Shown here: piece by piece, positions 2,164 to 57,585 of the stretch
How the letters are laid out: the number at the start of each line of letters is the position of its first letter
Position numbering within the stretch: the stretch's first letter is position 1
Origin: a virus
Lineage: Duplodnaviria > Caudoviricetes
IMG/VR virus record: IMGVR_UViG_3300000203_000003
Span: 64,001 to 128,000 of that record
Length of the DNA stretch: 64,000 nt
Strand: one strand, 5' to 3'
The notes under the pieces: model-generated
Databases searched by the model: none
What the model saw: the letters and a program-made list of their open reading frames with translations, nothing else
What the model was told of the DNA's origin: nothing
Made by a program: the position numbers and the translations under genes

Positions 2164-2763
2164 TTAGACTATGCCATGATGTGCCCTACATTTATCAAAG
2201 TGCCATCTACCCATGGCACTTGCGCCCCCTGATGTGCCGCAATGAGGACATTCTACAATCGGTTTAGGTATACCGGATAACGCCTCGCTGATTTTAGGAT
2301 TCTTTCGACCAGTAAGGGTGGCGCTCACCCAGGGCTGTTTCTTTCCGCGCTGTCTTTCACTCTTTGCGGTATTCTGGTCAGCAGTGTGTTTTCCACCAAC
2401 TAATTTTTGTCTAATCTTTTCTTTAACACATTCAGTTACTTTTTTGCCCAAGTTAGCTTTTCTAATTTTATCAGTATGTGATTTAGATTGTTTATAACCA
2501 CTAGTGCCTTCTCCACCATCTGTTAGGTTACGAAGTACCCCGGTCCCTAAATCTTTTCTACCGTACCACTTAATTAGTTGTCGTTCTAGTGCGAAAGCAC
2601 CTATCTCGGTTAAGTTCCGTTCTATTATAATAATTCTAGATTTTTCAGGTACTTTAATACGGTGGTTAATAGAGTCATATGCTCTACTGCCTTTTCCCTT
2701 GCCTATATAATACACGGTGTTGTTGGTTTTACGCAAATATGCATAAACATAATAAATAGTCAT
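2164..2763 (-). CDS. Free-standing GIY-YIG homing endonuclease (NUMOD3-like repeats, C-terminal CPHC zinc knuckle)
   Basis: YVYAY..YYIGKG..R, GRKDLGTGVLRNLTDGGEG; start reassigned to MTIYY (2763) after SD AAAGGA. Confidence 0.85.
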   Translation of the reverse strand: MTIYYVYAYLRKTNNTVYYIGKGKGSRAYDSINHRIKVPEKSRIIIIERNLTEIGAFALERQLIKWYGRKDLGTGVLRNLTDGGEGTSGYKQSKSHTDKIRKANLGKKVTECVKEKIRQKLVGGKHTADQNTAKSERQRGKKQPWVSATLTGRKNPKISEALSGIPKPIVECPHCGTSGGASAMGRWHFDKCRAHHGIV

Positions 2764-2830
2764 GCTGTGATTCCTTTCAATCATAGAGTAGTTGGGGAGT
2801 GGACGCCCGCGAACTACACTTTTATTTATC
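2752..2830. ncRNA. Conserved two-hairpin endonuclease-associated element, copy A
   Basis: Matches four other copies with compensatory changes. Confidence 0.7.
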
Positions 2831-4199
2831 AAATAACAATAGAATAGTCCCCGGCCGCATAAAAGCCTTCCCAAGACTTCATCCAAGTATCATCAGTGAA
2901 GCGATACTGAACCGCAGTGGTGAGATTAGTGACATACTGAACATCAGCAAGCAATGAACTGTCAAAACTGACGAACCATTTGCCCAGTGCGCTGCTGTAT
3001 TCAATAATATCATTAGCTTGAGCGATTAGATCACCCCAGCCGATTGTTGTGTCGCCCACATGACCGATACTCTCAACGATCAGATAGCGTCTGCCATTGA
3101 CTGGTGCAGGTAGTCCGGCGTTAGGACCAGAGACTAGCGGATTGATTACACTGTCAACAGGAGCAAGTGTATTCTGCGGCAGAGTATCAGGGTCGATACT
3201 GTAAATCAACAGACGATCATCATTTGGATCAGGAACAATCGTGCCAACAATCTCTGTTGTCATATAGGGATTCTGTAACCAGATTTGCGAGATGCCTGGA
3301 CGAATCGTGCCGTATACATTCAGCACACTGGCCCAATAGACTGAGGTGTCTGGGTTAGGTGGCAAGTTCAGATCATCGTTCTCAGGATAGAAGTCCCGAT
3401 TAGCAGGAAGTATTTGCAGAGCATTGCTGATCAACAATAACTTATAACCGTAAGGCGTAATCTTTTGTCTGGTCCCTAACAACAGATCATCATCTTGAAT
3501 GTCAGTAAGCGCATGACCTTTGAAGATAGACGCAATGATTTTCTCAATGACGCCGTACTTTTTAAGTTTCGCTGCGGTGCTCAACCATATAGGCATGTAG
3601 AACTTCCAAGTCAGCACATCGATAGGATTGCCTGAACCTTGTGGAATAGTTCGTGATGACCAGTTCAGTGACTCTTGATAGACAACGCTCAATGAAGTCC
3701 AGTCAATGAAGTTATCAGTTGATTGTATTTCAAGCGCAGGGTTAAACAGGGTACCCAGCTGCTCAACTAATTCAAGCTTTTGATTGTAGTTTGTTGTCCA
3801 GAAGTCTACTGTTATTTTAAGTGTATACGGCACTGGCATTAGTCGTTCAACTGTAAATGCTTGCCCCTGTGTAGTTTCATAAGTCTGAGTGTCACTATTG
3901 TATGCACGTTGTCTGATGCTGATTCTGTCAGTATATGTAGGATCCTGAGTTCGTTTCTGATCATACTCAAGCCCGCTGATGTAATATGAAATCATCGGAG
4001 CACTTGGCAGGTTGCTTGCGGTGTTGTTAGAGATGATGTTTGCTGCTTGTCTGCTGCTGTCACCATACATCACCGGTACTCTGACCATGATATCATTGCC
4101 TGCAGGGTCTTTGCCCCTGGTGACTTGCCAGTTAGAAAATATCTTCGCAAACTGTAGTAGAAAACGGCGAATCTGATTATCGTAGAAGAATGCGGCCAA
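2829..4199 (-). CDS. Tail sheath stabilizer/completion protein (T4 gp15-like)
   Basis: FFYDNQIRRFLLQF..VPVMYG..PVPY motifs; adjacent to neck gene; TTG start after AGGA. Confidence 0.7.
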   Translation of the reverse strand: MAAFFYDNQIRRFLLQFAKIFSNWQVTRGKDPAGNDIMVRVPVMYGDSSRQAANIISNNTASNLPSAPMISYYISGLEYDQKRTQDPTYTDRISIRQRAYNSDTQTYETTQGQAFTVERLMPVPYTLKITVDFWTTNYNQKLELVEQLGTLFNPALEIQSTDNFIDWTSLSVVYQESLNWSSRTIPQGSGNPIDVLTWKFYMPIWLSTAAKLKKYGVIEKIIASIFKGHALTDIQDDDLLLGTRQKITPYGYKLLLISNALQILPANRDFYPENDDLNLPPNPDTSVYWASVLNVYGTIRPGISQIWLQNPYMTTEIVGTIVPDPNDDRLLIYSIDPDTLPQNTLAPVDSVINPLVSGPNAGLPAPVNGRRYLIVESIGHVGDTTIGWGDLIAQANDIIEYSSALGKWFVSFDSSLLADVQYVTNLTTAVQYRFTDDTWMKSWEGFYAAGDYSIVI

Positions 4200-4209
4200 A
4201 ATAAATCCT

Positions 4210-5856: not shown

Positions 5857-5860
5857 ATAT

Positions 5861-6523
5861 TTATGTATTTGTTAGTAAACACCATCCTCCGACGCGAAGT
5901 TGTTTATGGTTGACGACACTGCTCATACTTGTAATGTTGAGGTTATATTTTTTAGTGAGTTCGGATTGGGTGCAACTTTCCTTTTCACCATTTTGGTGAA
6001 CGAAAGAATAGATAGTTAGATCGAAATTGGGATTGTTCCCGCCAAACCTGGTAATATTCCATTTTTGTTTTTCTGGAGTTAGTCTCCATCCGCGATGTGT
6101 CTTTGCTTTATTAGTAACCAATCCCGTAACACCAGAAATATTCAATGAATGTTTTTTGACCATGTCATATCTCGTACAATGCTCAACTCTTCCATCAGAG
6201 TGAAAAAATGTATATAAGGTTGTATCCCAAGGACACCCTGCTTTACCTTCTCCACCATCAGTTCTATTGTGCAGAATCCCAGTGAGATTATCTTTTCTAC
6301 CATACCATCTTATCAATCTTCGCTCCAGAGCATATGCCCATAACTCAGTTAGTCCGGTTGCGATGACTATTATCCTGTTTCTATCGGCTGGCAGCGGAAT
6401 GCTGTGCTTTTCGGTTGCTCGTTTGCCAATGCCCTTTCCGATATAGTATGGCGTGCCGGATTCTCGCAAATAGGCGTATACATAAAATCCTTCTTTGGTG
6501 TGTTGTCGGCCAAATATGTGCAT
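5861..6523 (-). CDS. Free-standing GIY-YIG endonuclease with two C-terminal (Y.F.H...GW) DNA-binding-like repeats
   Basis: [19 protein letters not shown]; [19 protein letters not shown]; start MHIF 4 nt after TAAATA. Confidence 0.85.
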
Positions 6524-6537
6524 AGAGTATTTATCAC

Positions 6538-6566
6538 TTGACAATAAACCCGTAATCTGTTACACT
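6538..6566 (+). promoter_or_regulatory. Sigma70-type early promoter
   Basis: TTGACA-N17-TACACT. Confidence 0.7.
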
Positions 6567-6592
6567 GAAAGTGTAGAAAGAAGGAGTAGGAA

Positions 6593-6781
6593 ATGTCTGA
6601 AGTTAAACTAAACGGTCCCCTGTTCAAAGTGACGATGACTGAACACGAACGTGGTTATGGTCAGCGCCCGATGGGTGAGAAATTTTTTGACAACGAGGAA
6701 GAGGCCAAAAAGTTCTGCGAGGAATACTTCGGCGGCGACTCAGAGTGCTATTTCAGGGCAGAGTATCGCAAAGTGGCGTAG
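6593..6781 (+). CDS. Small early hypothetical protein
   Basis: SD AAGGAG, promoter upstream. Confidence 0.7.
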   Translation: MSEVKLNGPLFKVTMTEHERGYGQRPMGEKFFDNEEEAKKFCEEYFGGDSECYFRAEYRKVA

Positions 6782-6782
6782 G

Positions 6783-6811: not shown

Positions 6812-6840
6812 ACACTCATACACTGAAAACGGAGAAACAA

Positions 6841-7325: not shown

Positions 7326-8531
7326 ATGGCAACTCGTAAACACAAAAAGACAGAAGACCACAGTCAAGTCAAGGCGCTGAACCCGCGTGATGTTGATCAA
7401 AAATATCTCGGCGACGAACCTCTGTTCGCCGAACAACCTGCAGCCGAGAATCGCAACTCAGCGATTGCCCGCGGTCTCGCATGGTATCATCGTTTCTACA
7501 CTCGCAAAGATGCCCGCGATATGCTGGCAACTTATCTTGACATTCATGAACGGACAGCAGATGCCAAAGTCATGCGTAAAGTCGATGAGGGCGAGTTCCG
7601 ACTGCCCACATTCGCATGGCTGTCTCGCATGGTCCTACGTGGTCTTGAACTGACAGAGCATGAAATGCTGTCATTGGAAAACGAAATCTCCAGGCTGCTG
7701 TTGACTATCAACAAGCCCGAAGTTAAGGTGACAAGCAAATTCACAACTGCGGCAAAGACTCCTGAACAGGCTGCAACTGCTAAGACAAACATCCAGGAGA
7801 CAATGCGTGAAAAGGCGCGTGAGGCTGCAGGTGAATTGGAGGGACTGTTTGATGACTACCTCACAGCAGGACAACCCACAAAACATTCGCTGCGTCCAAT
7901 GGATGAAGTGGCTAAGAAGAATGTCATGGTTCAACACATATCCATGCTCCGTGAAGTCTGGAACAAGAAACTTGCTGAAATGAATGAACTGCTCGAAGGC
8001 AAGGACGCTCAATTGGTTCAAGCGTACAGTCATTACAGCAAGCAACAAGTCAAGAATACGATCAAATTCATTGAGTTAATCATCAATGACCTCAATAGTT
8101 ATGTCAGTCTCAAAAAGACAACGAAAGCACCGCGCGCTCGTAAGGCGAGCCCGGTGGAAAAAACGGTCTCAAAAATGAAATATATGAAGGCGTTCAATGA
8201 CCCGGCAACAAAAGTAGATTTGATCAGTATCAGTCCTATTAAGGTACATAACGCCGAAGAAGTGTATCTGTATGATACCCAACTACGGAAGTTAACATAC
8301 CTAGTAGCCGATGAATATAGCAAAACTATGACTGTCAAAGGCACAACTATTTTGGGCTTCGACACAGCAAAAAGCCAGACAAAGACACTGCGTAAACCGG
8401 CAGAACAACTAAAGGAATTTCTGAAGTTGGGCAAACCGGCCGGACGAAAGTTTTTCGAGGCTATTCGGGCAGTAGCAACTATTCCCAAAGGTCGAACAAG
8501 CGACCGGACTATTATTTTGAAGGCGTCGTAA
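7326..8531 (+). CDS. Hypothetical phage protein (basic, helical)
   Basis: Long ORF; SD AAGGA before ATG 7326. Confidence 0.75.
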   Translation: MATRKHKKTEDHSQVKALNPRDVDQKYLGDEPLFAEQPAAENRNSAIARGLAWYHRFYTRKDARDMLATYLDIHERTADAKVMRKVDEGEFRLPTFAWLSRMVLRGLELTEHEMLSLENEISRLLLTINKPEVKVTSKFTTAAKTPEQAATAKTNIQETMREKAREAAGELEGLFDDYLTAGQPTKHSLRPMDEVAKKNVMVQHISMLREVWNKKLAEMNELLEGKDAQLVQAYSHYSKQQVKNTIKFIELIINDLNSYVSLKKTTKAPRARKASPVEKTVSKMKYMKAFNDPATKVDLISISPIKVHNAEEVYLYDTQLRKLTYLVADEYSKTMTVKGTTILGFDTAKSQTKTLRKPAEQLKEFLKLGKPAGRKFFEAIRAVATIPKGRTSDRTIILKAS

Positions 8532-9234
8532 TCAACTGCCAACCCTTCACTGTCCTTACGGCACCGCGCACCATCTTATTGACGTTGCGCGATTCCAATT
8601 TATGACTGGTATAAAAATCGTGACGAGTTGTAAAAACTTCCTCTCCTGTATCTTTATGCCTAAAACCATATATTGTGTGATCATAACTGTGGTGCCTTCG
8701 CCCAGCAAAAGGGGATGTGCCATCCGGTTTGCGTGAAAAAGGATTGACATATCCCGGTATTAATGTTTTGGTTTTACTAACACTAGAACCATCTTCCCTC
8801 TTAAGGAGATTGTGTGTTTTATTCAGTACACGATCAATATTATGATTACTACCGTCCGGTCTAGTTTGCCATGGATGTGTTCCTTTCGTTACACGATCAG
8901 TTTGTACATTTGTTCCATCCGGTCTTGTCTGCCATGGATGTGTACCATTAATCACTTGTTGTAAATTTCTAGCCCGGTTGAGTTCAGATAATATTTCTGC
9001 AGGCATTGTCATTTTGCGCCCTATAAGCAGACATGCTCCGAAGTCTGATTGCCTATAATGAATATCATAATGCTCCTGGATACTTAGGGCTGCTAAATTA
9101 GATGGGCCATTGTTAGTACGATCACCATCTAAATGATGAATGTCATATGTGCGTCCGGTTACATCTTTTGGGATCGGACCGATATGGTTCTCGTATATTT
9201 TACGATACTTAGTTGTTCCACAATAAATACACAT
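8512..9234 (-). CDS. Free-standing HNH endonuclease
   Basis: YDIHHLDGDRTNN..NLAALSIQEHYDIH; GTHPWQTRPDG repeats; C-terminal YDHTIY...KGW module. Confidence 0.85.
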   Translation of the reverse strand: MCIYCGTTKYRKIYENHIGPIPKDVTGRTYDIHHLDGDRTNNGPSNLAALSIQEHYDIHYRQSDFGACLLIGRKMTMPAEILSELNRARNLQQVINGTHPWQTRPDGTNVQTDRVTKGTHPWQTRPDGSNHNIDRVLNKTHNLLKREDGSSVSKTKTLIPGYVNPFSRKPDGTSPFAGRRHHSYDHTIYGFRHKDTGEEVFTTRHDFYTSHKLESRNVNKMVRGAVRTVKGWQLITTPSK

Positions 9235-9300
9235 GCTGATGCCCTTTCACGGCGTTAGAGAGGGTGGGCCTGCCAGCCGCGACTCTCACTTTTATTTATT
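9222..9300. ncRNA. Conserved two-hairpin endonuclease-associated element, copy B
   Basis: See findings. Confidence 0.7.
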
Positions 9301-9309: not shown

Positions 9310-9338
9310 TTGATTTCCTGTAAAAGATTATGTATAAT
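9310..9338 (+). promoter_or_regulatory. Sigma70-type promoter (extended -10)
   Basis: TTGATT-N17-TATAAT. Confidence 0.65.
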
Positions 9339-9355: not shown

Positions 9356-9787
9356 ATGATCGATCTGAATAAGTATACCGAATTTGTCGAGGCTATTACA
9401 AGCCAAGCAAGCAATGATCTAACATCATTCACCAACTCAATATCCAGGGTTGATGCGAATTATGATGCCAATCAAGATAAGTATGGTCCCGATGTGAATG
9501 TGCCTTTGCTGATTACTGGTGCTATGGGTTTGTGTGGCGAAGCCGGTGAATTCAGTGAGATTGTCAAGAAGGTTTTATTTCATGGCAAAGAACTGAATGA
9601 AGAGGTCCATGCTCATCTGGTCAAAGAATTGGGTGATGTAATCTGGTACTGGACCAACACTTGTCGGGCACTCGGCGTTAACCCTAACGATGTGATCGCT
9701 CTCAATGTTTCAAAACTACAATCACGCTACCCGGGCGGAACATTCTCCGCTGCTGCCAGCGAGACTCGCAAAGAAGGCGACATCTAA
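9356..9787 (+). CDS. mazG: MazG-like NTP pyrophosphohydrolase
   Basis: GLCGEAGEFSEIVKK...KELGDVIWY...N..KL..RYP. Confidence 0.85.
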   Translation: MIDLNKYTEFVEAITSQASNDLTSFTNSISRVDANYDANQDKYGPDVNVPLLITGAMGLCGEAGEFSEIVKKVLFHGKELNEEVHAHLVKELGDVIWYWTNTCRALGVNPNDVIALNVSKLQSRYPGGTFSAAASETRKEGDI

Positions 9788-24469: not shown

Positions 24470-25030
24470 ATGAGCGAATATTATGTATATGCCTACTTGA
24501 GAGATGACGGAAGTCCGTATTATATAGGCAAGGGTAAAGGAAATCGAGCCTACACTAAAAGTAAGGGCGAGATAAGTAAACCCGTTGACAAAACAAGAAT
24601 CGTTATTTTAGAACAAGGATTAGCGGAAGTTGATGCCTTCACATTAGAGAAACAGATGATTGGCCAGTATGGACGTAAAGATAATAACACCGGAATACTT
24701 CGTAATAAAACGGACGGTGGTGAAGGCCCGGGCGGAATAAAACAATCACCGGAAGTTATTGCCCGACGAGTGGAGTCCTCTAGAGGAAAATCAATGGGTA
24801 TGACAGGAAAGAAACATCGTCCGGAATCAAATGAAAAACGAAGGCTATCGATGCTAGGTAAAAATACCGGGACACATACGATTGAACATTGTATTGCTAG
24901 TGGACTACCCAAACGCGGAATGAAATATAAATCACAATATAAACTCGTATGCCCGCACTGTGATAAATCAGGCGGTAGCGCAAATATGAAAAGATATCAT
25001 ATGGACAATTGTAAACAAATAGAAAGATAA
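24470..25030 (+). CDS. Free-standing GIY-YIG endonuclease (NUMOD3, CPHC knuckle)
   Basis: YYVYAYLRDDGSPYYIGKG; GILRNKTDGGEG; MTGKKH; CPHC. Confidence 0.85.
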   Translation: MSEYYVYAYLRDDGSPYYIGKGKGNRAYTKSKGEISKPVDKTRIVILEQGLAEVDAFTLEKQMIGQYGRKDNNTGILRNKTDGGEGPGGIKQSPEVIARRVESSRGKSMGMTGKKHRPESNEKRRLSMLGKNTGTHTIEHCIASGLPKRGMKYKSQYKLVCPHCDKSGGSANMKRYHMDNCKQIER

Positions 25031-36359: not shown

Positions 36360-38827
36360 CACAACCTATTTGGAACACGACTGCAGGATCACTGGGATCC
36401 TTTCCGGCTCTGATATTACTTGATGTTCAATTATCAGCATCGGCACAGCTACCGGCTACTAGCATACAATACTCTTTGTTGAGTGGAACATTGCCGACAG
36501 GGTTATCACTGACTGTTGATGGATTGATTTATGGATTACCGGCACTAGTTATTACAGATACAACAAACACCTTTACTGTTCGTGTAACAGATAATCTAAA
36601 TAGTATCCGAGACAGAACATTCTCAATGAAAGTATCCGGTGCAGTTCTTCCGCAGTTTACAACTCCGGAAGGAAGTTTATTAAGCACTCAGGACAGTATC
36701 TGGACTGAACTTCCGTTAATGTATTCTAATCCATATACTGCTAATGAAGTGATCATAGAGTTGAAGGAAGGGGTTTTGCCACCGGGACTAGAAATTAATG
36801 CGGCAGGGGTTATTCGTGGTTATCCTAATCCGCCTATAGTTAATAATACATTGAATGCCACCGCGACCAATGCCACAATTACTACCTCAGGAACTAACTT
36901 GATTACATGTGCAACAACTACACATTTTAGCACAGGTCGACCAGTTGTATTTACGGGAACAATTGTGTTTGGTGGGATAACGGCCGGCAGAACATATTAT
37001 ATCAAAACAGTGAATAACACAACAACGTTTACTATATCCACCACTCCCGGCGGTGATGTATTCCCCCTGGGCAGTGATACTGGCTCAATGACAGTTACGT
37101 TACCAGCAACATCTGTGGGCGCTCCAGCAATACGAACGTATTCCTTTACGTTAAAGTTAATAAGTGGTCTAGGTGGTGATACTGCTGCATATTCTATTAC
37201 AGTAATTAATCAAAATACTCCTGTCAGCGAAGGTGGTCCGGGCAAGACAGCTAATACAAGAGTCCCCACTATTCTCAATACTCGGCCACTAACATTTAAC
37301 ATCACTGATGCTGATCCGTATTACGGGTATTATGTTTTACCGCCGATAGCGCCGTCCCAACCAGCGAATATAGGAACTATTCAAAGTGGTGATTATTTTG
37401 CCTTCAAGATACATGGTGATGACTTCGACAACAATGAACTTGTATATTCATACTCGGGGTTACCTCTTGGGCTAGTTGGTGATCCTGTAACAGGCTGGAT
37501 CACTGGAACACCGATTATATCGTCGGGCATAAGTAATTATAACTTTAGTGCAGCCGTCAGTAAAAAATTAAACCCAGGCATCAGCAGTGTATATTTTAAC
37601 TTCGGTCTGAAAGTGAGTAACGGTGTTAATGATACTATAACATGGACCACTCCTGCGGATCTAGGAACAATATTCAACGGTACTATTAGCACGTTGAGCG
37701 TAGAGGCAGCATCGGGTGTTTCTCTGATGTATCGCGTAGTAGGTGGTAGTCTACCACCGAATCTAACTTTATTGGAAAATGGTGAAATAACAGGTTATGT
37801 ATCCGATCAACCTACCGAAGATTTTCTCCTTAAAGGTAACAGCACTATATTTACCGTTACGGTACAGGCATACTCTCTGCAATATTCTATTATCCACTCT
37901 AGCAAAACATTCAGCATAAATGTTCTGCAGGAATATAGTCAACCTACAGATATTTTATATATCAAAGCTGCTCCGAGCGTAAATGATCGTCAAACCATCG
38001 ATTCATTATTGACAAACGAAACATTGATACCAACAACAGATTTGTACAGACCGGACGACGGCTATTTTGGTAAAGCAACAAGCGTGATTTATGCACATGC
38101 GTATGGGATATACGCAAGTGATATCAGCGAGTACATTGCTTCGGTCACTACTAATCATTACTGGAGAAGTATCACTCTCGGCGAATTAAAAACTGCCGAG
38201 GCAAAGAACGACGCCGGAGAGGTTGTGTATGAAGTAGTGTATAGTGAAGTCATTGACAATCTTGTTAATCCTTCTGGAACAAGTATAAGTAGTAGCATAT
38301 ATTGGCCTCGACCAATTGACTTGGGTTTGGGACCATGGTATACAAGTGTGACTGACATTTATACCAGTTATGATTTCTCCGGAACTTATTACACCAGTTT
38401 GACTTCAGGATTCGCCCGAATATTATATCCAAATAGTCTGATCAATATGCGTAACAAAGTAGCCGCATCATTGGGTCAAGAATTCGACAGCAGATTGCTT
38501 CCGCTCTGGATGACTAGTCAGCAAGCAAATGGCAGCACACTAGGATACACTCAAGCGTGGGTGATATGTTACACTCTGCCGGGTAAAGCCAACACAATAA
38601 AGAATAATATACAGTCATTATGGCCGCATACGCTGAACGAAATCAATTTCAGCCTTGATAGATTCACGGTTGATAAAAGTTCTACCTATAATTACAATAA
38701 GAACGTGAATCCGGCTGCGTGGACAGGATTGCCAAGCGCAACACCGGTGCCCGATCCACTGAACAGCAAGGACTTTACCATACTTTTCCCGCGTAAAACT
38801 ATTTTACCCGATCAAACTCAATACTAA
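36356..38827 (+). CDS. Baseplate/virion protein with Ig-like (He_PIG-type) repeats
   Basis: Repeated SG.LP.GL.L...G.I.G.P motifs. Confidence 0.65.
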   Translation: MTQPIWNTTAGSLGSFPALILLDVQLSASAQLPATSIQYSLLSGTLPTGLSLTVDGLIYGLPALVITDTTNTFTVRVTDNLNSIRDRTFSMKVSGAVLPQFTTPEGSLLSTQDSIWTELPLMYSNPYTANEVIIELKEGVLPPGLEINAAGVIRGYPNPPIVNNTLNATATNATITTSGTNLITCATTTHFSTGRPVVFTGTIVFGGITAGRTYYIKTVNNTTTFTISTTPGGDVFPLGSDTGSMTVTLPATSVGAPAIRTYSFTLKLISGLGGDTAAYSITVINQNTPVSEGGPGKTANTRVPTILNTRPLTFNITDADPYYGYYVLPPIAPSQPANIGTIQSGDYFAFKIHGDDFDNNELVYSYSGLPLGLVGDPVTGWITGTPIISSGISNYNFSAAVSKKLNPGISSVYFNFGLKVSNGVNDTITWTTPADLGTIFNGTISTLSVEAASGVSLMYRVVGGSLPPNLTLLENGEITGYVSDQPTEDFLLKGNSTIFTVTVQAYSLQYSIIHSSKTFSINVLQEYSQPTDILYIKAAPSVNDRQTIDSLLTNETLIPTTDLYRPDDGYFGKATSVIYAHAYGIYASDISEYIASVTTNHYWRSITLGELKTAEAKNDAGEVVYEVVYSEVIDNLVNPSGTSISSSIYWPRPIDLGLGPWYTSVTDIYTSYDFSGTYYTSLTSGFARILYPNSLINMRNKVAASLGQEFDSRLLPLWMTSQQANGSTLGYTQAWVICYTLPGKANTIKNNIQSLWPHTLNEINFSLDRFTVDKSSTYNYNKNVNPAAWTGLPSATPVPDPLNSKDFTILFPRKTILPDQTQY

Positions 38828-40760: not shown

Positions 40761-41264
40761 ATGAAAACTGATATTTACGGCCAACAAATTTACAACGAAG
40801 TAGATTTGTGTGGGTTCTTCATGCAAGACCCAGATCGTATGATAAAAGATGCTCTGGTTGAGTCCAAAATCTCGTTTGACTCGCTTGAACTAGAAAATGT
40901 GCCTAAGTTGAAGTTGTATCAAGATCCGAAACTAACCGTAGACGAATTTGATCAACAAAAACAATCTGATTGGTTCATGCCCGAAGAGTATCGACAGCTA
41001 GATATTGCTAAATGGGTTCTGGATCAGTGTAAAGATGAGAATGAACTTCAACGAGCAGGGGACGAGCTCCTGAAATACAATGACAGAAAAATGCTGGTGC
41101 TGCTACAATATCTTAAATATCTTGTAGACACCATGCGTCAGCATAAAATTGTATGGGGCGTGGGTCGGGGAAGTAGTGTTGCGAGTTTTGTGTTATACCT
41201 AATCGGTGTTCATCACATCAACTCACTCTATTACGACCTCGATATAAATGAGTTTTTAAAATAA
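40761..41264 (+). CDS. DNA polymerase III alpha-like fragment (split family C polymerase)
   Basis: WGVGRGSSVASFVLYLIGV matches DnaE GPGRGSAAGSLVAY.LGI. Confidence 0.75.
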   Translation: MKTDIYGQQIYNEVDLCGFFMQDPDRMIKDALVESKISFDSLELENVPKLKLYQDPKLTVDEFDQQKQSDWFMPEEYRQLDIAKWVLDQCKDENELQRAGDELLKYNDRKMLVLLQYLKYLVDTMRQHKIVWGVGRGSSVASFVLYLIGVHHINSLYYDLDINEFLK

Positions 41265-42034: not shown

Positions 42035-42113
42035 ATAAATAGTAGTGTAGTTCGCGGGAGTGGAATCCCCAACTACTCTAACGCTTTAGAGGAGCATCAG
42101 CATGACTATTTAT
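42035..42113. ncRNA. Conserved two-hairpin endonuclease-associated element, copy C
   Basis: See findings. Confidence 0.7.
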
Positions 42114-42824
42114 TACCTCATGGTTAAGACCCATAATATCACTGGGTTAAAATACCTATGTCAAACCAAACGAAAAGATCCATTAAAATATTTGGGCTCA
42201 GGTTTACATTGGGGACGGCATCTTGCCATCCATGGTAAAGCAATCACAACCCTAATCCTCAAGGAATGTAGTTCAATTGAAGAAATAAAAGAATATGGAT
42301 TATATTATAGTGAATTGTGGAATATAGTTGATAGCGATGAGTGGGCAAATCTAAAACCTGAGGATGGTCAGGGCTGGGGTGAAGGTGAACATCACCCGAT
42401 GCGTGACCCAACGATTCGCGCAAAAATACAAGGTGACAACAATTACCAACGAAAACCGGATTATAGTTGCAGCCAAACTACAATAGACAAGATATCAGGT
42501 CAAAATCATTACAAAAGTCGGTCGGGGTATATTCCTATTGAGGTAAGTCGGGCTACTAAGAGTAAAATGTCAGCGTCACACTGGACAAAACAACCAAATG
42601 CAGGTGAAGTTAAATCCAAGATATCCGGTAAAAATAACTATCAATATAATCCTACCATCTATTGTTTCCATAATACTATTAATGGAGAGATAATAAGGAT
42701 GACGCGGTCTGAATTTAAAAATTATACAAATATGCCTAACAATCGGTTAGGAGCATTGATCAATAACAAAAAATATAAAGGGTGGAAGATATTAGATATC
42801 CCACCAAATGATGTTGACATATGA
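42102..42824 (+). CDS. Free-standing Seg-like GIY-YIG endonuclease
   Basis: IYYLMVKTHNITGLKYLCQT..YLGSG; WANL; C-terminal Y.F...KGW module. Confidence 0.75.
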   Translation: MTIYYLMVKTHNITGLKYLCQTKRKDPLKYLGSGLHWGRHLAIHGKAITTLILKECSSIEEIKEYGLYYSELWNIVDSDEWANLKPEDGQGWGEGEHHPMRDPTIRAKIQGDNNYQRKPDYSCSQTTIDKISGQNHYKSRSGYIPIEVSRATKSKMSASHWTKQPNAGEVKSKISGKNNYQYNPTIYCFHNTINGEIIRMTRSEFKNYTNMPNNRLGALINNKKYKGWKILDIPPNDVDI

Positions 42825-45324: not shown

Positions 45325-46017
45325 TTAAGCTAGATGCATACTCCATCCGCTTACTGATTTGCGATTGCCTAAAACCAGTTCATTAATATTACCGGGGTGC
45401 AAATTATATGCTATTACCAGTGCTTTCTTAGTAGAATTAACTATCGTATTGGTCGCTGAGTGAAGGAATGAATATCTAGTAGCCGGGATGTCAGACAATC
45501 TCCATCCCTTTAAGAATTGTAACTTGCCACTAGTCAGTTCCCCGACTCCGCTCTTATACATACCGAATTCCCTACAAAATTCCGACCGAACCATTCTGAC
45601 ATGTCGGTCAGTCTCATTGTGATAAAAATCATAGATGGTGTGGTCATAATTATACGCATTTTTACCTTTAATATGATTTTTTGCAATTATTTTGATATGC
45701 TCGTATGAGCGTGATGTTACTCTCCCGTTGTACCTGCTCATTCTACACATCGTCATAAATGCATAACACATTCTTGCCTTATGTTCACTGGTTGTTATCT
45801 TAGTAAGTAACCAATGGGCGATAAAATGTTCTCGTATGGTAAGTGCAACGGTGTGAGTACCGCCCATTGACTTAGGAATAAAATGGTGCCGTTCAACATT
45901 TGTTTTAAGTCGCGCCCTTTGTTGAGCGTTAATAATAAGTTGCACATACCATGCGCTGTACTTGTTATTTAAGAATACGTTTGTATTAAGGTGCTCGGCG
46001 AGTGAATAAATAGTCAT
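45325..46017 (-). CDS. Free-standing HNH endonuclease
   Basis: ERHHFIPKSMGG...LTIREHFIAHWLL; two C-terminal Y.F.H...GW modules; start MTIYS. Confidence 0.85.
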   Translation of the reverse strand: MTIYSLAEHLNTNVFLNNKYSAWYVQLIINAQQRARLKTNVERHHFIPKSMGGTHTVALTIREHFIAHWLLTKITTSEHKARMCYAFMTMCRMSRYNGRVTSRSYEHIKIIAKNHIKGKNAYNYDHTIYDFYHNETDRHVRMVRSEFCREFGMYKSGVGELTSGKLQFLKGWRLSDIPATRYSFLHSATNTIVNSTKKALVIAYNLHPGNINELVLGNRKSVSGWSMHLA

Positions 46018-46084
46018 GCTGATGATCCTCCAGATCGTTAGAGAGGGCGGGAATCTCACCTCCGTGGCTCTCACTTTTATTTAT
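46005..46084. ncRNA. Conserved two-hairpin endonuclease-associated element, copy D
   Basis: See findings. Confidence 0.7.
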
Positions 46085-48613: not shown

Positions 48614-50890
48614 ATGACCAACTCACCTGAAACAGAAGCAATCATTGAATCGGCGATTGCCTTCGCAAAAGAGCGCAAACATCAGTATTGCACCATTGAA
48701 CATCTTTTACTTGCGTTGGTAAGTCACCCGCCATTCAAGAAATGTCTGACAAGCTTCGGCGCTGACACTGATGCACTAATCAATGAACTTAGTGCGTATC
48801 TGGGCAGTCTTCATGCTATCGTTGCAAATGTCGCCCCTGAAGAGGAAGTTAATCCTCGCAGGACAAACTCACTGGAGCGCGTGATGAATCGATCAGTGAC
48901 ACAGGTTCTGTTCACCGGACGCAAACAAGTCACCACAATTGATCTGTATCTGAGCATCGCCACAGAAGCTAATAGTCATGCTCACTACTTCCTGTTGAAG
49001 TACGGTGTCATTCGCAACGAGTTTGTTCAACACTGGCAAAAGACTTACAAGGGCGCTGAATACACAACTGCTTTGTCAGATGGTCAAGCTGACGAAATCC
49101 TCGAAGAACACACAACTAATCTTACTCTACTTGCTAAACACGGCAAGCTGGAGCCGATGATTGGTCGTATTCAGGAGCTTGATGACATTGCTAATGTATT
49201 GGCAAAACGCTTTAAATCAAATGTGTTGATGGTGGGCGACCCCGGCGTAGGTAAGACAGCAATCGCAGAAGGTCTTGCCCAGATGATCGTTGATAAGTCA
49301 GCGCCTGAGTTCCTACATGATCACGAAATGTATTCGCTTGAAATCGGATCATTGCTTGCTGGCAGTAAGTATCGCGGTGACTTTGAAGAAAAAGTCAAAG
49401 CAGTTCTGGAAGCACTGAACACCAAGAAGAAAGCTATTCTGTTCATTGACGAAGCTCATACGATGCAGGGCGCCGGCGGCAGCACCTCAGGTGCAGTTGA
49501 CTTTGCGAACATGATTAAGCCAGCTATCACCAAAGGCACTCTGAAAGTTATCGCCTCGACAACTTGGGAAGAGTATTACGAATCGTTTGAAAAGGACAGG
49601 GCGTTGATGCGTCGATTCTATCGTGTGTCTATTGACGAGCCAAGTCACGATTCTACGATTCGCATCCTGTCTGGTCTCAGTACACGACTAAGCGACTTTC
49701 ACGATGTTCAAATCACTGACGAAGCAATCACCGCAGCAGTTGATTCAGCAGCGCGATACATTCACGACCGCAAGAATCCTGACAAGTCTATCGATGTGCT
49801 TGACGGCGCCTGCGCTAAACAACGTGTGCTTGGCAACAAGCAAGCAGTGATCACTAAAGAGTTGATTCACGAACAAGTTGAACGCATGACCGGTGTACCT
49901 GCTGAAAAGTTGTCAGGTGACAACTATGATCGTATTGCATCGCTTGAGTTGAACATCAAGGGCAAGCTGTACGGGCAAGATGAAACTGTCAGTCAAGTGT
50001 TGGAACGCATCTATGTCAGCTTTGCAGGTATCGGAAACGACACCAAGCCTACAGCATCGTTTATCTTCACTGGACCAACTGGTACTGGTAAGACAGAACT
50101 GGCACGACTGTTAAGCAAAAATCTTGATATGCCGCTGCTCAAATATGATATGAGTGAATACAGCGAGAAACATTCCGTGTCAGCATTGATCGGTCCGCCC
50201 CCGGGCTATGTAGGCTTCGGTGACAGTCAAGTTGGCGGCGGCCGATTGATCAATGATCTGAGCAAGAACCCGCACAGCATCATGCTATTTGATGAAGTTG
50301 AAAAAGCTCATCCTGATATCTTCAACATCTTTCTTCAAATGCTTGACGAAGGACGCATCACTGGTTCGAATGGTAAAGAAGTCAGTTGCAAAAACTCTAT
50401 CATCATCATGACCAGTAATCTCGGTTCTGCTGATGGCGAGAAGAATAACATCGGCTTCGGCACACAAGAAAAGCACGGTGAAGATGACAAAGCACTCAAG
50501 GAATTCTTCAAGCCTGAATTCAGGAATCGCATCGATCTGATCTGTAAGTTCGGCAAGCTGGACACCCTGGCGATCAAGAAAATCGTTATCAAGTTCACTG
50601 AGGAACTGAAAAAATCTCTTATTGAGAAACATCAGATTACATTCTCGTTATCTGAGCCGGTTGTCGAGTTCCTGGCAAATCAAGGTTACGATCCTAAGAT
50701 GGGCGCCAGGCCCCTTGGTCGTAAGATTGACGAACTGGTCAGAATTCCGCTGAGTAAGAAGATTCTGTTTGAGCGTGTGAAGAATGCAACTGTCACGGCG
50801 GTGATGGTTGACGGTGCAATCGGGTTCAATGTAGTTCAGAAAGTCAATGCTCACATCGGTGAAGATGGAGTGATTCAGCTTGAAAGTTGA
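48614..50890 (+). CDS. clpA: ATP-dependent Clp ATPase (ClpA-like)
   Basis: Clp-N domain, two AAA modules (GDPGVGKT, GPTGTGKT), KYRGDFEE, IGF loop, no ClpB middle domain. Confidence 0.9.
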   Translation: MTNSPETEAIIESAIAFAKERKHQYCTIEHLLLALVSHPPFKKCLTSFGADTDALINELSAYLGSLHAIVANVAPEEEVNPRRTNSLERVMNRSVTQVLFTGRKQVTTIDLYLSIATEANSHAHYFLLKYGVIRNEFVQHWQKTYKGAEYTTALSDGQADEILEEHTTNLTLLAKHGKLEPMIGRIQELDDIANVLAKRFKSNVLMVGDPGVGKTAIAEGLAQMIVDKSAPEFLHDHEMYSLEIGSLLAGSKYRGDFEEKVKAVLEALNTKKKAILFIDEAHTMQGAGGSTSGAVDFANMIKPAITKGTLKVIASTTWEEYYESFEKDRALMRRFYRVSIDEPSHDSTIRILSGLSTRLSDFHDVQITDEAITAAVDSAARYIHDRKNPDKSIDVLDGACAKQRVLGNKQAVITKELIHEQVERMTGVPAEKLSGDNYDRIASLELNIKGKLYGQDETVSQVLERIYVSFAGIGNDTKPTASFIFTGPTGTGKTELARLLSKNLDMPLLKYDMSEYSEKHSVSALIGPPPGYVGFGDSQVGGGRLINDLSKNPHSIMLFDEVEKAHPDIFNIFLQMLDEGRITGSNGKEVSCKNSIIIMTSNLGSADGEKNNIGFGTQEKHGEDDKALKEFFKPEFRNRIDLICKFGKLDTLAIKKIVIKFTEELKKSLIEKHQITFSLSEPVVEFLANQGYDPKMGARPLGRKIDELVRIPLSKKILFERVKNATVTAVMVDGAIGFNVVQKVNAHIGEDGVIQLES

Positions 50891-52150: not shown

Positions 52151-52151
52151 A

Positions 52152-54569
52152 ATGAAAACAATCGTCGTAATGCCAGGAGGCTTTCATCCGTTTCACGCAG
52201 GACATTATGCTCTGTATAAATCAGCAGTGGAGGCCTTTCCCGGCGCTGATGTGTATGTCGCTGCAACAAACGATCAAAAAGCACGACCTTTCCCGTTTGC
52301 GATTAAAGAGAAACTTGCTAAGATAGCCGGCGTTGCTCCAGGACATTTCGTTCAGGTGTCAAGTCCATTCAAAGCAGCAGAGATAACTCAGCACTACAAC
52401 CCTGATCAGGATGTGCTGATCTTCGTCCGTTCAGAGAAGGACCGAAACGAACAACCTAAGCCCGGTGGCATGAAGAAGGACGGCACCCCATCTTACTTTC
52501 AGCCATATACAGGAAAAGGTATGCAGCCGTTCAGTAAACACGCTTACTTCGCCTATCTGCCTACGGTAGAGTTTGGTCCTGGCATCACCGGCGCAACAGA
52601 GATTCGCAATGCCTGGCCGACATTGAATCCTACTCGCAAGACAGCAATGGTTATGAGCCTGTATCCAGCAACGAAACAGAATCCTCAGCTGGCTGCGAAT
52701 GTAGTCAAGATGATGGATCTTGGCATGGGCGGCCAGCCCGAAGTGGATGAGAGTAAAGAGGAGGCACTTCAGTATGCTACTCAGGCTCATGCCGGACAAA
52801 CGAGAGCAGGTGGTGCTCCTTATATTTCACATCCGATAAGTGTAGCAGATTCAATCAAGCAATACAAGAAATCACACAACCTCGATGCGTTAATCAGTGC
52901 TGCACTATTACATGATACCGTAGAAGATACTGACACCACTCATGAAGCCCTACACGATTTATTCGGTGGTTTAGTTGCCTCACTAGTTCAAGAACTAACT
53001 AGCGACAAAGAGAAGATTCAACAAATGGGCAAAGCTGATTATCTGGCACAGAAAATGGCTGCTATGAGCAGTTATGCTCTGGTGATAAAACTTGCCGATC
53101 GACTCGACAATGTTCAAGATATTGCTACTGCTAAAACTCCAGAGTGGAGGGCGAAGTATAGGGCAGAAACTGAAAAGATTTTAGACTATATTGAAAAGCA
53201 TCGCGCCTTATCAGGAACGCACCAGAAGTTAATAGAACTTATCCGTAACAAGTTAGGCGAGATTGATAGTCATCAAGGTGTAACAGAAGACACCTCATCC
53301 TCAAGTCTTCCGGATGTTCTGTATCACGGTGGTGAACACCAGATAAGCAAGTTCAGAATTCCACCCTACGGTGTATTTTTCAGTCCCCATAAAGAATGGG
53401 CAGAGGAATACGGTGACGCGCTAACTACCGCAAAAGTCAACGCCACGAAAGTGTATGTCGCCGATTCTGATAACTGGAACGATCCAAACTCGTTTGACGC
53501 TAAAGTGCTTGACGCACTGTTTGACCGTGACTATAAAACTTTGGCAGTATGTGTCAAAGTATTACAGGCTCGAGGCTATCAGGCACTTCAAACGCAGACT
53601 GACAGCGAAATGGTTGTGGTGTTCCCGGGAACTGAGATTCAAGTATTACCGCCGGATGAAGGAGTTGAGTTAAAATTCAACTCAAATTCACTCAACGAAA
53701 GTCAAATCTATTCGTATTTTAAGAAGAAATATTCTCTCTACGAAAGTGAAAAATTCCCACAGAGAATGGTATCAAGTATTAAAAAGATAAATGAAACAGA
53801 CAACCATAATGAAATTAAACAATTTATCCATCGGGTTGAAACCTTTGACTATCCTGGTCGGATCAAAGTAGGAGATTCCTTGGCAGTTTTAGATTTTGAG
53901 ATAAACTTCGCCTGGAAAGAAATTGAAGGTCGTGGATTTACACAGGCAAAAAGAATAACAAAAATATCGGCTGATAGCGCCGGAATAAATTATATAGAAT
54001 TTGAAGACGGTGACCGATATCCTAGACTTGCAAAAGCAACGTTCGGAGATAAACAACGACCCATGGAATTTGCCGCGTATTTTAAAAAATCAAATGATGC
54101 GGAACACGCCATTACGGTATTAGGGTTGATCGTGCCCGATACATGGGAATACAATACCAGTGAAATTCAACGTGGCAACACTTCTGAAGTTGACGAACAA
54201 TTCACCACTAATCTGACAACCGAGGGTGACCTAAATGAACTCCATTCGGACACCTTACATAGTTATGCAGGAAAGGCATGTGACCGTAATACCAAGAGTA
54301 TTAGGCAAGCAGATTGGAAACGAACTACCCCGGATGAGAGAGAGAAGATTCACCAAAAAGTTCTAAGAAGATGTGACGGTATAGGAAGGGCTTTGGACAA
54401 GGATCATGCCAAGCAGGAGAATGAACTGTTGAAGAATATTCCACCTCATTTACGCAAAAAATTAAGGCTTCCTGAACCATATGTTGATGAAGGCTCGGAC
54501 ATCCAGTTGTCCAAACCAATCAAACCTTTCAATCAGGTTAAACAATATCCTCTGACCGCCCTGCTATAG
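52152..54569 (+). CDS. Multidomain protein: HxGH nucleotidyltransferase + SpoT/Mesh1-like HD hydrolase + ART-like + unknown domains
   Basis: GGFHPFHAGH; AHAGQTR..PYISHP, LHDTVEDT, KLADRLDN; VLYHGG..GVFFS. Confidence 0.8.
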   Translation: MKTIVVMPGGFHPFHAGHYALYKSAVEAFPGADVYVAATNDQKARPFPFAIKEKLAKIAGVAPGHFVQVSSPFKAAEITQHYNPDQDVLIFVRSEKDRNEQPKPGGMKKDGTPSYFQPYTGKGMQPFSKHAYFAYLPTVEFGPGITGATEIRNAWPTLNPTRKTAMVMSLYPATKQNPQLAANVVKMMDLGMGGQPEVDESKEEALQYATQAHAGQTRAGGAPYISHPISVADSIKQYKKSHNLDALISAALLHDTVEDTDTTHEALHDLFGGLVASLVQELTSDKEKIQQMGKADYLAQKMAAMSSYALVIKLADRLDNVQDIATAKTPEWRAKYRAETEKILDYIEKHRALSGTHQKLIELIRNKLGEIDSHQGVTEDTSSSSLPDVLYHGGEHQISKFRIPPYGVFFSPHKEWAEEYGDALTTAKVNATKVYVADSDNWNDPNSFDAKVLDALFDRDYKTLAVCVKVLQARGYQALQTQTDSEMVVVFPGTEIQVLPPDEGVELKFNSNSLNESQIYSYFKKKYSLYESEKFPQRMVSSIKKINETDNHNEIKQFIHRVETFDYPGRIKVGDSLAVLDFEINFAWKEIEGRGFTQAKRITKISADSAGINYIEFEDGDRYPRLAKATFGDKQRPMEFAAYFKKSNDAEHAITVLGLIVPDTWEYNTSEIQRGNTSEVDEQFTTNLTTEGDLNELHSDTLHSYAGKACDRNTKSIRQADWKRTTPDEREKIHQKVLRRCDGIGRALDKDHAKQENELLKNIPPHLRKKLRLPEPYVDEGSDIQLSKPIKPFNQVKQYPLTALL

Positions 54570-54633
54570 GGTAAATAGAAATATTTTGAGCCACTTTGGC
54601 CAGAGTAAATATTTCTATCTTACAGAGGATCTC

Positions 54634-55509: not shown

Positions 55510-55523
55510 AGTCTTTATCAAAT

Positions 55524-55545
55524 AAAAGGCTCTTCGGAGCCTTTT
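55524..55545 (+). terminator. Intrinsic terminator
   Basis: AAAAGGCTC-TTCG-GAGCCTTTT. Confidence 0.85.
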
Positions 55546-55578
55546 CCTATCCTCGCAGTAATAGGACTAAATAATAGT

Positions 55579-56244
55579 ATGATTGCTTATTCTAAACTAA
55601 ATCCACCAACTGGCTTCTATGTATATATGTGGCTTCGGGAAGACCAGAGTCCATATTATGTAGGAAAAGGTATGACTCGCAGAGCTTGGCGATCAGGATC
55701 TCCAATTGATCAAACCCGCATTGTTATAGTTGAGCATATGCTCACTGAGGAGGAAGCGTTTAGTAAGGAACGACAACTCATTAAAGAGTACGGTCGTAAA
55801 GACCTCGGAACAGGCATATTAAGAAATATGACTGATGGCGGAGAAGGAGCATCAGGGCAGGTACAGACAATTGATACTATTGAAAAGCGACATAAAACAC
55901 GCAAAGAAAATGGAAATTGGGGCAACGCATCACTGATAGGTAGTAAACAAGCGGCGGAAGAAATATCCAGAAAAAGCGAAAGACAACGCGGTCAAAAACA
56001 TTCTCCTGAGCGTAATGCGAAGCGCAGTGCAGCATTGAAGGGTAGAAAGTTATCCCCTGAACATATAGCCAAGCGAACTGCTACGGTAACTGGCAGAAAA
56101 CAACGACCTGAAGTTATTGAAAACCGATCAGCGCAACTAAGAGGGCGAAAGCAAGAGGTGATAACTTGTCCACATTGTGGCAAATCCGGCGGGTGCGTAG
56201 TTATGAAGAGGCACCACTTTGACCATTGTAAATCTATCCGATAA
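55579..56244 (+). CDS. Free-standing GIY-YIG endonuclease (NUMOD3 repeats, CPHC knuckle)
   Basis: FYVYMWLRE..PYYVGKG; GRKDLGTGILRNMTDGGEG. Confidence 0.85.
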   Translation: MIAYSKLNPPTGFYVYMWLREDQSPYYVGKGMTRRAWRSGSPIDQTRIVIVEHMLTEEEAFSKERQLIKEYGRKDLGTGILRNMTDGGEGASGQVQTIDTIEKRHKTRKENGNWGNASLIGSKQAAEEISRKSERQRGQKHSPERNAKRSAALKGRKLSPEHIAKRTATVTGRKQRPEVIENRSAQLRGRKQEVITCPHCGKSGGCVVMKRHHFDHCKSIR

Positions 56245-56251
56245 ATACTTG

Positions 56252-57511
56252 ATGGATCTCAAAGAACTCGACTCATTTAAACTGGCAGACGCAGTGACTT
56301 TTCACACGGAACTGAACCCTAAACTTTTCAGAGGTCGTCACCTACATCCTGAAGTTGAAAAGCAACTGAAAATCATCGCTGAAGATTTCATTGAAGAAAT
56401 GGGTCTGTCTGATATTAACGTGGTTGATATCACAATCTCCGGTTCAAACGCAGCATACAGTTATACGAAACACTCTGATCTAGATTTACATCTACTTGTG
56501 GATATGTCGAAGTTAAATAATGACGCAATGTATCTGGAGTTGTTTGATGCGAAAAAGACAATCTATAACGACACACACGACATAACAATCAGACACATTC
56601 CAGTTGAGTTGTACATTCAGGATTCAAATCATCAGGTTACAAGCGTCGGTGAGTATAGTATTCTGCGTGATGAGTGGATCAGAATCCCAAGTAAGCGTAG
56701 AGCAAACTTCGATCAAACAGCAACGGCTGCGAAGTATGAAAAACTGTCGAAGTTGATAGACAGAGCGTTGAAAACATCTGACCTGAATAAGATAAATCAT
56801 CTGATCAAAACAATACATCGCTACAGACAAGCAGGGCTTGACCAAGGCGGCGAGTTCGGACCAGAGAATCTTGCATACAAAGCAATACGAACAACTGGCC
56901 AGATCACTAAGCTGTATGCTCTGCGAGATAAACTTCATTCCAGAAGATTGAGTATCGAGGGACAGTATTCTCAATTGGAAGAATCAACGTCTACTCTTCC
57001 TAAAGTATTGTATCATGTGACTCCGGCGAAGAATCTGCCTGGCATAATGAGTAAAGGGTTGATACCGAAAGTAGGAAGTAGATCAGCACAAATATACAAC
57101 GAACAATCTGGTATATTCTGTTTCCCCGATAAGGTATCAGTCGAAGATGCGCTGATGAATTGGTTAGGTGATCAGTTCGATGAGAATGAAACTCTGGCAC
57201 TACTGGCTATAGATTCGACAGGACTACAAGGTAAATATACTCCTGGTGCAGAATATGAAGTTGTGATTACTTCTCCGGTCCCAGTCAGTAATATAAGTGT
57301 CGCATCAAAAGATGTAGACGCGATGTTTGAATCAGCATCAGGTTACATCCCAAGCAACGCTCAAAAGAATGATCCAAGATACAAAACAGCGTTAACTGTA
57401 GATATCAAGCCGGATACGATCCAAGTAAATGCTAAAAAATTAGGGTTAGGTGGAATAAAAAGATCAGGAATTCCTCAGTTTGCCCGGGCCGATGGCAAAA
57501 CAAAAAGATAA
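56252..57511 (+). CDS. Pol-beta-type nucleotidyltransferase fused to ART/Tpt1-like domain
   Basis: GSNAAYSYTKHSDLDLH..VELY; LYHVTPAKNLPGIMSKGL.P. Confidence 0.75.
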   Translation: MDLKELDSFKLADAVTFHTELNPKLFRGRHLHPEVEKQLKIIAEDFIEEMGLSDINVVDITISGSNAAYSYTKHSDLDLHLLVDMSKLNNDAMYLELFDAKKTIYNDTHDITIRHIPVELYIQDSNHQVTSVGEYSILRDEWIRIPSKRRANFDQTATAAKYEKLSKLIDRALKTSDLNKINHLIKTIHRYRQAGLDQGGEFGPENLAYKAIRTTGQITKLYALRDKLHSRRLSIEGQYSQLEESTSTLPKVLYHVTPAKNLPGIMSKGLIPKVGSRSAQIYNEQSGIFCFPDKVSVEDALMNWLGDQFDENETLALLAIDSTGLQGKYTPGAEYEVVITSPVPVSNISVASKDVDAMFESASGYIPSNAQKNDPRYKTALTVDIKPDTIQVNAKKLGLGGIKRSGIPQFARADGKTKR

Positions 57512-57585
57512 ATAGTAGTGTAGTTCGCGGAAGTGGAATTCCCAACTACTCTAATGCCCAAGGAGCAATCAGCATGACTATTTAT
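57508..57585. ncRNA. Conserved two-hairpin endonuclease-associated element, copy E
   Basis: See findings. Confidence 0.7.

Follow-up and report, generated by a model that had tools for sequence, protein, structure and literature searches.

In large lytic phages, mobile DNA consists mainly of free-standing homing-endonuclease genes (HEGs), and the control of the cost they impose is understood for a few T4 genes only. Among other mobile elements, IS10 is governed by the promoters pIN and pOUT, by the antisense transcript RNA-OUT and by fold-back inhibition. For HEGs of the T4 type, translational control has been described for I-TevI, I-TevII/III, segB and Aeh1 mobE (PMC2988022). Dassa et al. 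(2009) found hairpins at late promoters in front of GIY-YIG and Vsr-like HEGs from ocean and lake metagenomes, in the context of 'fractured genes'; they recognized in them two conserved motifs complementary to each other, and interpreted them as hairpins of the mRNA strand which sequester the ribosome-binding site and exert a T4-like translational control (PMC2677866). T4-like phages furthermore possess PeSLs, composite terminator/promoter cassettes (PMC2839356, PMC4122927), and in cyanophage S-PM2 the antisense RNA CfrI, ≈ 225 nt long, links a HEG to psbA (Millard et al. 2010, as cited in PMC2984593). The present analysis deals with a structured element that recurs in front of HEGs in a window of 64,000 nt, i.e., bases 64001-128000 of the 141,978-bp IMG/VR viral record IMGVR_UViG_3300000203_000003.

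This element is the outer edge of an inserted cassette, and its structure is selected on the strand opposite the HEG. The broader view is that it represents a portable, strand-asymmetric control module which borders free-standing HEG cassettes of T4-superfamily jumbo phages on their 5' side; to this view we assign about even chances.

Architecture of the element and selection on the opposite strand

Read along the gene strand, the element comprises an ATAAATA box, two variable bases, AGTG, the hairpin P1, one base, the hairpin P2, a C, the start codon ATG, and TATTTA(T), the box in inverted orientation. P1 is built from a 6-bp outer stem, a C-R-C/C interior and a 3-4-bp inner stem, and P2 is a CTA...CAG hairpin with the Shine-Dalgarno sequence (SD) located in its loop and 3' arm. 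Copy C covers the whole arrangement at 42035..42113 on the + strand (96.6 bits). Its ATAAATA box, the putative late-type promoter of the HEG, occupies 42035..42041 (+) with a predicted +1 at G42047; the covarying P1, with an extra R-C pair in its interior, spans 42047..42076 (+); P2 follows at 42078..42100 (+), weak on the mRNA because of A.C mismatches and stable on the opposite strand, where these become G.U pairs; and the inverted box at 42107..42113 (-) coincides with HEG codons 2-4 and is a candidate for an antisense late promoter or for a fold-back partner of the sense box. The remaining copies in the window are A (2752..2829, -), B (9223..9299, -), D (46006..46084, -), and E (57508..57585, +). 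All five had been pointed out in an earlier note on this DNA, with coordinates that agree to within 1 nt; the whole record holds 12, on which the pattern search and a covariance model agree, with no weaker matches in addition.

Two pattern scans of IMG/VR, one demanding both ends of the element and the other its 5' half alone, returned at least 113 and at least 116 stretches, with more than 170 distinct variants altogether. Among the matches listed, the element is always situated at the 5' end of free-standing HEGs, behind which at least six unrelated N-terminal protein families were distinguished, and complete relatives of 264-525 kb carry 1-9 copies each. The constancy of AGTG, C-R-C, CTCTA and CAGC in these metagenomic sets was partly imposed by the search patterns, whereas the covarying positions were left free. 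Membership of a described Rfam family, a point raised in the earlier note, was not found: no family of Rfam 15, including HEARO and the phage small RNAs (sRNAs), matched at its gathering score across the window, and at E <= 10 noise alone (E > 5) was obtained over copy C.

The earlier proposal that both stems covary holds in a larger alignment of 61 distinct sequences retrieved by the 5' half only. The covariation score is 0.531 compared with 0.146 in shuffled alignments, none of 500 shuffles reaches 0.531, slid partners give at most 0.06, and double changes occur in 13 of the 18 pairs.

Single transitions in a Watson-Crick pair give G.U and A.C equally often. Among the non-Watson-Crick cells of 112 sequences, gene-strand A.C (G.U on the opposite strand) was counted 227 times and gene-strand G.U only 17 times, and the same bias is seen in an independent set of 61 sequences (112 A.C versus 6 G.U). 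It extends to the P1 core alone (33:0) and to P2 after exclusion of its invariant A.C pair (72:5); the extra internal-loop pair between columns 27 and 51 is G-C in 75 cases, A-U in 11, A.C in 24 and G.U in 2. Standard pairs account for 97.5-98.5% on the antisense strand versus 87-89% on the sense strand. Because transitions produce both mismatches alike, this asymmetry shows that pairing has been selected on the strand opposite the HEG. The predicted energies are in line with the counts: the minimum free energy is lower on the antisense strand in 106 of the 112 sequences, by 5.1 kcal/mol on average, the mean energy of P2 amounts to -2.3 kcal/mol on the mRNA strand versus -5.5 kcal/mol on the opposite strand, and RNAalifold gives -20.8 kcal/mol (antisense) versus -9.0 kcal/mol (sense) for the 12 copies of the record itself. 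The better pairing on the antisense strand that had been claimed from five copies is thus borne out. As the antisense advantage is alike in copies tandem to the upstream gene (-4.8) and divergent from it (-5.1), the bias belongs to the cassette itself.

It is the strand bias, too, by which an ordinary T4-style mRNA leader has to be judged. In such a leader, pairing between the two boxes (P0) in read-through RNA would close a three-way junction round the SD and the AUG, late transcripts would start inside it and be translated, and P1 would act as a 5' stabilizer. The paradigm of I-TevI, segB and Aeh1 mobE (PMC2988022) lends itself to this interpretation, which is also the one that Dassa et al. 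gave to similar hairpins (PMC2677866); moreover, RNAalifold predicts P0 on both strands, a P0 extension is enriched in tandem copies (see below), and P1 is ≈ 95% Watson-Crick on the sense strand as well. However, selection on the mRNA should have produced the opposite of the 227:17 excess, and with its 87-89% of standard pairs the mRNA strand is not the well-paired strand of a T4-type hairpin. Since both P1 and P2 are contained entirely within the predicted mRNA, no late-promoter bypass can operate on them; P0 itself consists of 7 A-U pairs closing a junction of ≈ 65 nt, for which no covariation is available, and most copies are without an upstream gene on the same strand. The bias thus excludes an mRNA-only leader as the main target of selection, and as an account of the whole element we consider it improbable.

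By itself the strand bias cannot separate RNA from DNA, and the opposite strand might fold as single-stranded DNA, with G.T tolerated, during replication or recombination, where it could serve mobilisation, priming or nicking. The position of the element at the cassette edge would suit such a role, as would the G.T that TACTTA variants of the inverted box retain in the box-box pairing of the opposite strand. On the other hand, a site of this kind is not required for homing, and neither HUH nor recombinase genes accompany the element; boxes that resemble promoters and are correctly spaced, together with a U-rich tail, are typical of RNA, and G.U pairs, one of which is invariant here, are far better tolerated in RNA. 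A role as DNA appears very unlikely; the idea of a DNA hairpin for mobilisation, like that of an RNA partner of the nuclease, both offered in the earlier note, has gained no specific support.

Three further candidates were discarded. An antisense-strand mini open reading frame (ATG CTG ATG...) varies in length and stop among the copies, pairing between the two linkers as GUG/CAU is lost once the ATG shifts, and an extension of the box/box pairing through the two variable bases adds 0 pairs in most copies overall.

The two boxes and the predicted transcripts

The sequence ATAAATA occurs 75 times in the record (39 expected), mostly just upstream of genes, including those for sheath and tube, while most of its antisense occurrences within genes, namely 12, are the inverted boxes of HEGs. 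The sense box precedes the ATG by 59-62 nt in 12 of 12 copies. Inverted TATTTA is found 5-7 nt past P2 in 160 of 168 copies, and exactly 6 nt past it in 140 of these 168, although its offset from the A of the start codon may be 3, 4 or 5, i.e., all three frames are used (MTIY, MIFI, MYL...). In copies retrieved by the 5' half only, it is exact in 43 of 51 and carries one mismatch in 6 more. Since the inverted box keeps its distance from P2 in three reading frames, it must be regarded as a nucleotide signal tied to the hairpin rather than as a protein motif. It matches the general promoter motif of the phage. The presence of a separate TAAATA box in codons 2-4, noticed earlier, is thus supported.

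The T4 late box spans -13 to -6 (PMC2988020). Applied here, this rule would place the start of the HEG mRNA at the opening base of P1; an RNA of the opposite strand would start 1 nt before P2' (P1' and P2' denoting the hairpins as formed on that strand) and cover the whole 5' untranslated region (UTR). Complete element-bearing relatives possess a gene for a gp55-like protein; in the record itself, which is 41% complete, T4 gp55 was not detected. As a separate observation, many genes of the record show ATAAATA followed by exactly 4 nt and ATG, without a Shine-Dalgarno sequence (among them those at window positions 6528(-), 10602(+), 24459(+) and 56241(+)), an arrangement which suggests leaderless late mRNAs starting at the A of the start codon.

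The explanation we favour assigns a different task to each strand. On the gene strand, the late-type ATAAATA box would start the HEG mRNA with P1, and the A.C mismatches would keep the SD-bearing P2 weak, such that ribosomes could be loaded. On the opposite strand, the same positions are G.U, and the RNA would fold P2', then P1', and continue into a U-rich tract. Two routes to this RNA can be envisaged, i.e., a transcript of ≈ 65-70 nt initiated at the late box within HEG codons 2-4, and, for inverted cassettes, host-strand transcription through the HEG in reverse, of which the RNA would form the 3' end. If initiated at the late box, it would traverse P2' and P1' and finish with ACU(UU)UAUUUAU, which is complementary to the sense box. 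Over the stretch between the mRNA start and 1 nt before the AUG, the RNA would be perfectly complementary to the HEG 5' UTR. The predicted antisense RNA has a mean folding energy of -17.4 kcal/mol and spans the SD up to 1 nt before the AUG; by virtue of its complementarity it would mask the SD and limit translation of the HEG, in the manner of IS10 RNA-OUT. At the same time, P1' and the U-tract would stop opposite-strand transcription just ahead of the neighbour's promoter. The most economical view may be that of a multi-purpose module, which would provide the HEG with a late promoter and an open leader, the opposite strand with an anti-leader RNA and a terminator, and a transcript read from upstream with a fold-back structure. 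That the structure works as an RNA of the opposite strand, either as an anti-leader of ≈ 65 nt from the inverted late box or as the terminated 3' end of host-strand transcripts, or both, seems to us neither more nor less probable than its contrary, this estimate covering the antisense-RNA reading together with the terminator role.

Cassette boundaries and neighbouring transcription

At the copy A site, located after a sheath-like gene, 79 of 80 relatives are empty, including one that is 99% identical. In the sole other occupied relative (L203:3800-4000, 93% identical), the site holds a GIY-YIG HEG of a different class, preceded by a separate version of the element. In both occupied genomes the box directly adjoins the stop codon of the upstream gene, which in the window is the TGA of the sheath-like gene to which copy A is tandem. 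With respect to the last codons of this upstream gene, synonymous codons were seen to differ between occupied and empty alleles. In copy E, the stop codon of the upstream open reading frame (ORF) falls inside the box.

At the copy B site, the HEG is inverted within a + strand operon. Empty relatives possess, in this order, the stop codon of a gene X, a canonical terminator, ≈ 20 nt, a sigma70 promoter and a gene Y, whereas in the window the native terminator and promoter are replaced by the reversed HEG, the element and a different promoter, and homology picks up only at the ribosome-binding site of gene Y. The new promoter, of the sigma70 type (TTGATT-N17-TATAAT, 9310..9338, +), points outward 10 nt beyond copy B and would drive the gene at 9356-9787; because it differs from the empty-site promoter, it is part of the inserted DNA. 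With the native terminator replaced, transcripts of gene X must cross the HEG backwards. The first terminator-like structure that they meet is P2'/P1' with its U-run, gene X being without any other terminator.

This arrangement is not confined to copy B. Divergent 5' neighbours outnumber tandem ones roughly two to one, and some 60-70% of the cassettes run against the genes around them. Of 170 distinct flanks, 47 (28%) contain a sigma70-like promoter directed outward, its -35 mostly beginning 6-12 nt from the box; with a strict sigma70 pattern, 24 promoters point away from the HEG and 0 inward. Of the outward-promoter copies, 22 allowed a classification, and 21 of these have their HEG reversed within an operon of the other strand. 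As the cassettes are mostly inverted and many carry such a promoter, the antisense hairpins sit where a terminator of the host strand belongs. Furthermore, AA after the box, which leaves the U-run intact, is commoner in divergent copies (59% versus 36%, p = 0.015).

Along these lines, the element might be nothing else than a PeSL-like terminator or insulator of the host strand, which ends neighbour transcripts running backwards through an inverted HEG and whose inverted box is no promoter. The place it takes at copy B, the fixed spacing of the outward promoters with their inverted HEGs, the distribution of the intact U-run and the precedent of PeSLs as terminator/promoter cassettes in T4-like phages (PMC4122927) would all fit. 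However, P2' would then be left unexplained, separated as it is from the U-tract by P1', the conserved inverted box at its fixed spacing would have no explanation, and the antisense bias should not be equally strong in tandem copies, where no host transcript is expected to cross; the terminator scan described below was negative as well. Such a restricted role appears unlikely, although less so than the mRNA leader. The features that a terminator alone leaves unexplained, i.e., P2', the inverted box and the equal advantage of tandem copies, favour an RNA made by the cassette itself from the inverted box.

Several points weigh against the antisense RNA and its terminated end, and they are set out here together. 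A simple consensus terminator scan calls no P1' plus T-run, as examined for copies A and D. The commonest outer stem of P1' is AU-rich and bulged, with two bases (AC) before the T-run (TTTTATTTAT), and thus differs from the uninterrupted GC-rich stem with an immediate T-run that characterizes an intrinsic terminator. Four of the six variant inverted boxes read TACTTA, a change which would weaken a promoter and keeps the antisense G.U. Pairing of the two boxes as P0 explains the inverted box equally well, and a 2-bp extension of P0 is commoner in tandem copies (10 of 39 versus 3 of 80, p = 0.0007, kinship being uncontrolled). As both promoters would be of the late type, there is no obvious temporal logic to the proposed repression. 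Finally, the record contains five more HEG paralogs that are not preceded by the element and start from a plain box-N4-ATG; GIY-YIG HEGs of this kind, 40-45% identical to element-bearing ones, are located at 5867-6523(-), 24470-25015(+) and 55579-56241(+). For the antisense RNA already proposed in the earlier note, the opposite-strand selection, the inverted box and the placing of the predicted start are favourable, and the ending in hairpin P1' plus T-run is the part that the scan did not recover. A more ambitious formulation, namely a widespread family of phage cis-antisense sRNAs associated with HEGs of many unrelated families, with a late promoter in the first codons of the HEG, G.U/A.C asymmetry by which the same DNA yields a stable RNA from one strand and an open leader from the other, dosage-dependent and possibly cross-family repression, and a terminator that repairs the split host operon, is put forward as tentative and somewhat doubtful.

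The HEGs behind the five copies differ in type, as had been claimed. HEG A (2164..2763, -; MTIYYVYAYLR...YYIGKG) matches profiles of GIY-YIG-type homing endonucleases, and HEG B (8512..9234, -) matches the HNH_3 profile. HEG C (42102..42824, +) belongs to a second GIY-YIG-like class, without a direct profile match and 45% identical to a homing endonuclease of phrog_314; HEG E (57574..58245, +) is of the same class and likewise 45% identical to a phrog_314 member. HEG D (45325..46017, -) corresponds to the homing endonuclease phrog_655 with the HNH-like motif ERHHxxPKSxGG. The C/E class and A are unrelated to each other, and among the element-sharing classes protein similarity was not detectable past the first residues. 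In the whole record the classes are recognized by PPxGFYxYAYLR...YYIGKG (GIY-YIG), MTIYYLxVKTHxITGLKYL...KYLGSG (second class), HNH_3 and the HNH-like phrog_655.

Outside the window, three elements (record positions 36820-36897, 41076-41161 and 49252-49332) are intact at 74-86 bits in front of HEGs that carry frameshifts or are cut down to 39, 83 and 124 amino acids. A deletion derivative was also observed (L184:2497-2604, L131:693-800); it retains the box, P1 and the 5' arm of P2, is without the 3' arm of P2, the ATG and the inverted box, and joins directly to the C-terminal zinc-finger part of a HEG.

By its proteins, the record (44% G+C, 41% complete according to CheckV) belongs to the T4-superfamily jumbo myoviruses. 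The nearest counterparts of its sheath-associated protein come from Agrobacterium phage Atu_ph07, Sinorhizobium phage Phosso and Pseudomonas phage PA5oct (31-35% identity). The element was not found in INPHARED phages by megablast and blastn, an 18-nt match within a cyanophage helicase gene being dismissed as chance, and the covariance model detected no copy in Atu_ph07, Phosso, PA5oct, SCTP-2 or S-PM2; no cultured phage among those examined carries it. Elsewhere in the window, the tail-gene region contains a single ORF of 3565 amino acids (25040-35737, +), and a ClpB-like double AAA+ protein and a polyvalent protein with cytidylyltransferase-like, HD and ART-PolyVal domains are encoded at 48614-50890(+) and 52152-54569(+).

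Comparison with known systems

The hairpins of Dassa et al. are the closest relatives described, and the earlier statement that such a shared element lacked precedent was too strong in view of them. Common to both are a hairpin in the HEG 5' UTR, a box of the TATAAATA type, the spread over unrelated HEG families and the origin from metagenomic T4-like phages, so that on a comparison by description the element and those hairpins probably belong to the same family. The antisense bias, the inverted box and the outward promoters are not mentioned there (PMC2677866). In the literature searched, neither selection on the antisense strand, nor a frame-independent inverted box fixed to a hairpin, nor a back-to-back fusion with an outward promoter was found.

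With the T4-type HEGs the element shares a late promoter directly upstream of the HEG, its activity here being predicted, and an RNA structure round the ribosome-binding site. In T4, late mRNA is spared the inhibitory hairpin because it is transcribed from a promoter located within that hairpin, whereas here both covarying hairpins are downstream of the predicted start; thus, the promoter-bypass logic of T4 is inapplicable to P1 and P2, and a promoter within the 5' arm would exist only for P0, which does not covary. Unlike in T4, moreover, pairing has been selected on the other strand.

The resemblance to PeSLs, drawn from their description, resides in a small repeated stem-loop with an early promoter at the boundaries of inserted DNA. 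It is confined to the 28% of copies whose opposite-strand face combines stem-loops, U-run and sigma70 promoter. Unlike a PeSL, the element is fused back-to-back with a late promoter, a leader and the start of a HEG, and it has two hairpins and an inverted late box. CfrI offers an antisense RNA opposite a HEG in a T4-like phage; according to the citing source it was experimentally detected, whereas the RNA considered here is predicted, and as S-PM2 has no copy of the element, the two are unrelated.

Being abundant, strongly constrained and mobile between nuclease families, the element looks like a general adaptor for dropping a selfish gene into an operon in either orientation. For practical purposes, its covariance model can serve as a marker by which HEG cassettes and their precise limits are located in phage genomes from metagenomes. 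Should the antisense RNA exist, the element would furthermore provide a clear case from nature in which only one strand of a sequence is built to fold.

The element would then invite a functional analogy with IS10. As in IS10, a convergent promoter, here a candidate box resembling the promoters of the phage, is placed in the first codons of a mobile-element gene; as with RNA-OUT, a stable stem-loop antisense RNA of ≈ 70 nt, here a predicted fold, would cover the translation start region; and fold-back pairing would silence read-through from outside, while the copy number would allow inhibition in trans. The differences are that there is no homology in sequence or structure, the host is a phage with a late sigma factor, two hairpins are involved, the activity is a prediction, and many nuclease families take the place of one transposase. 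Given a genuine antisense RNA, the element would thus represent a phage counterpart of the antisense control of transposons.

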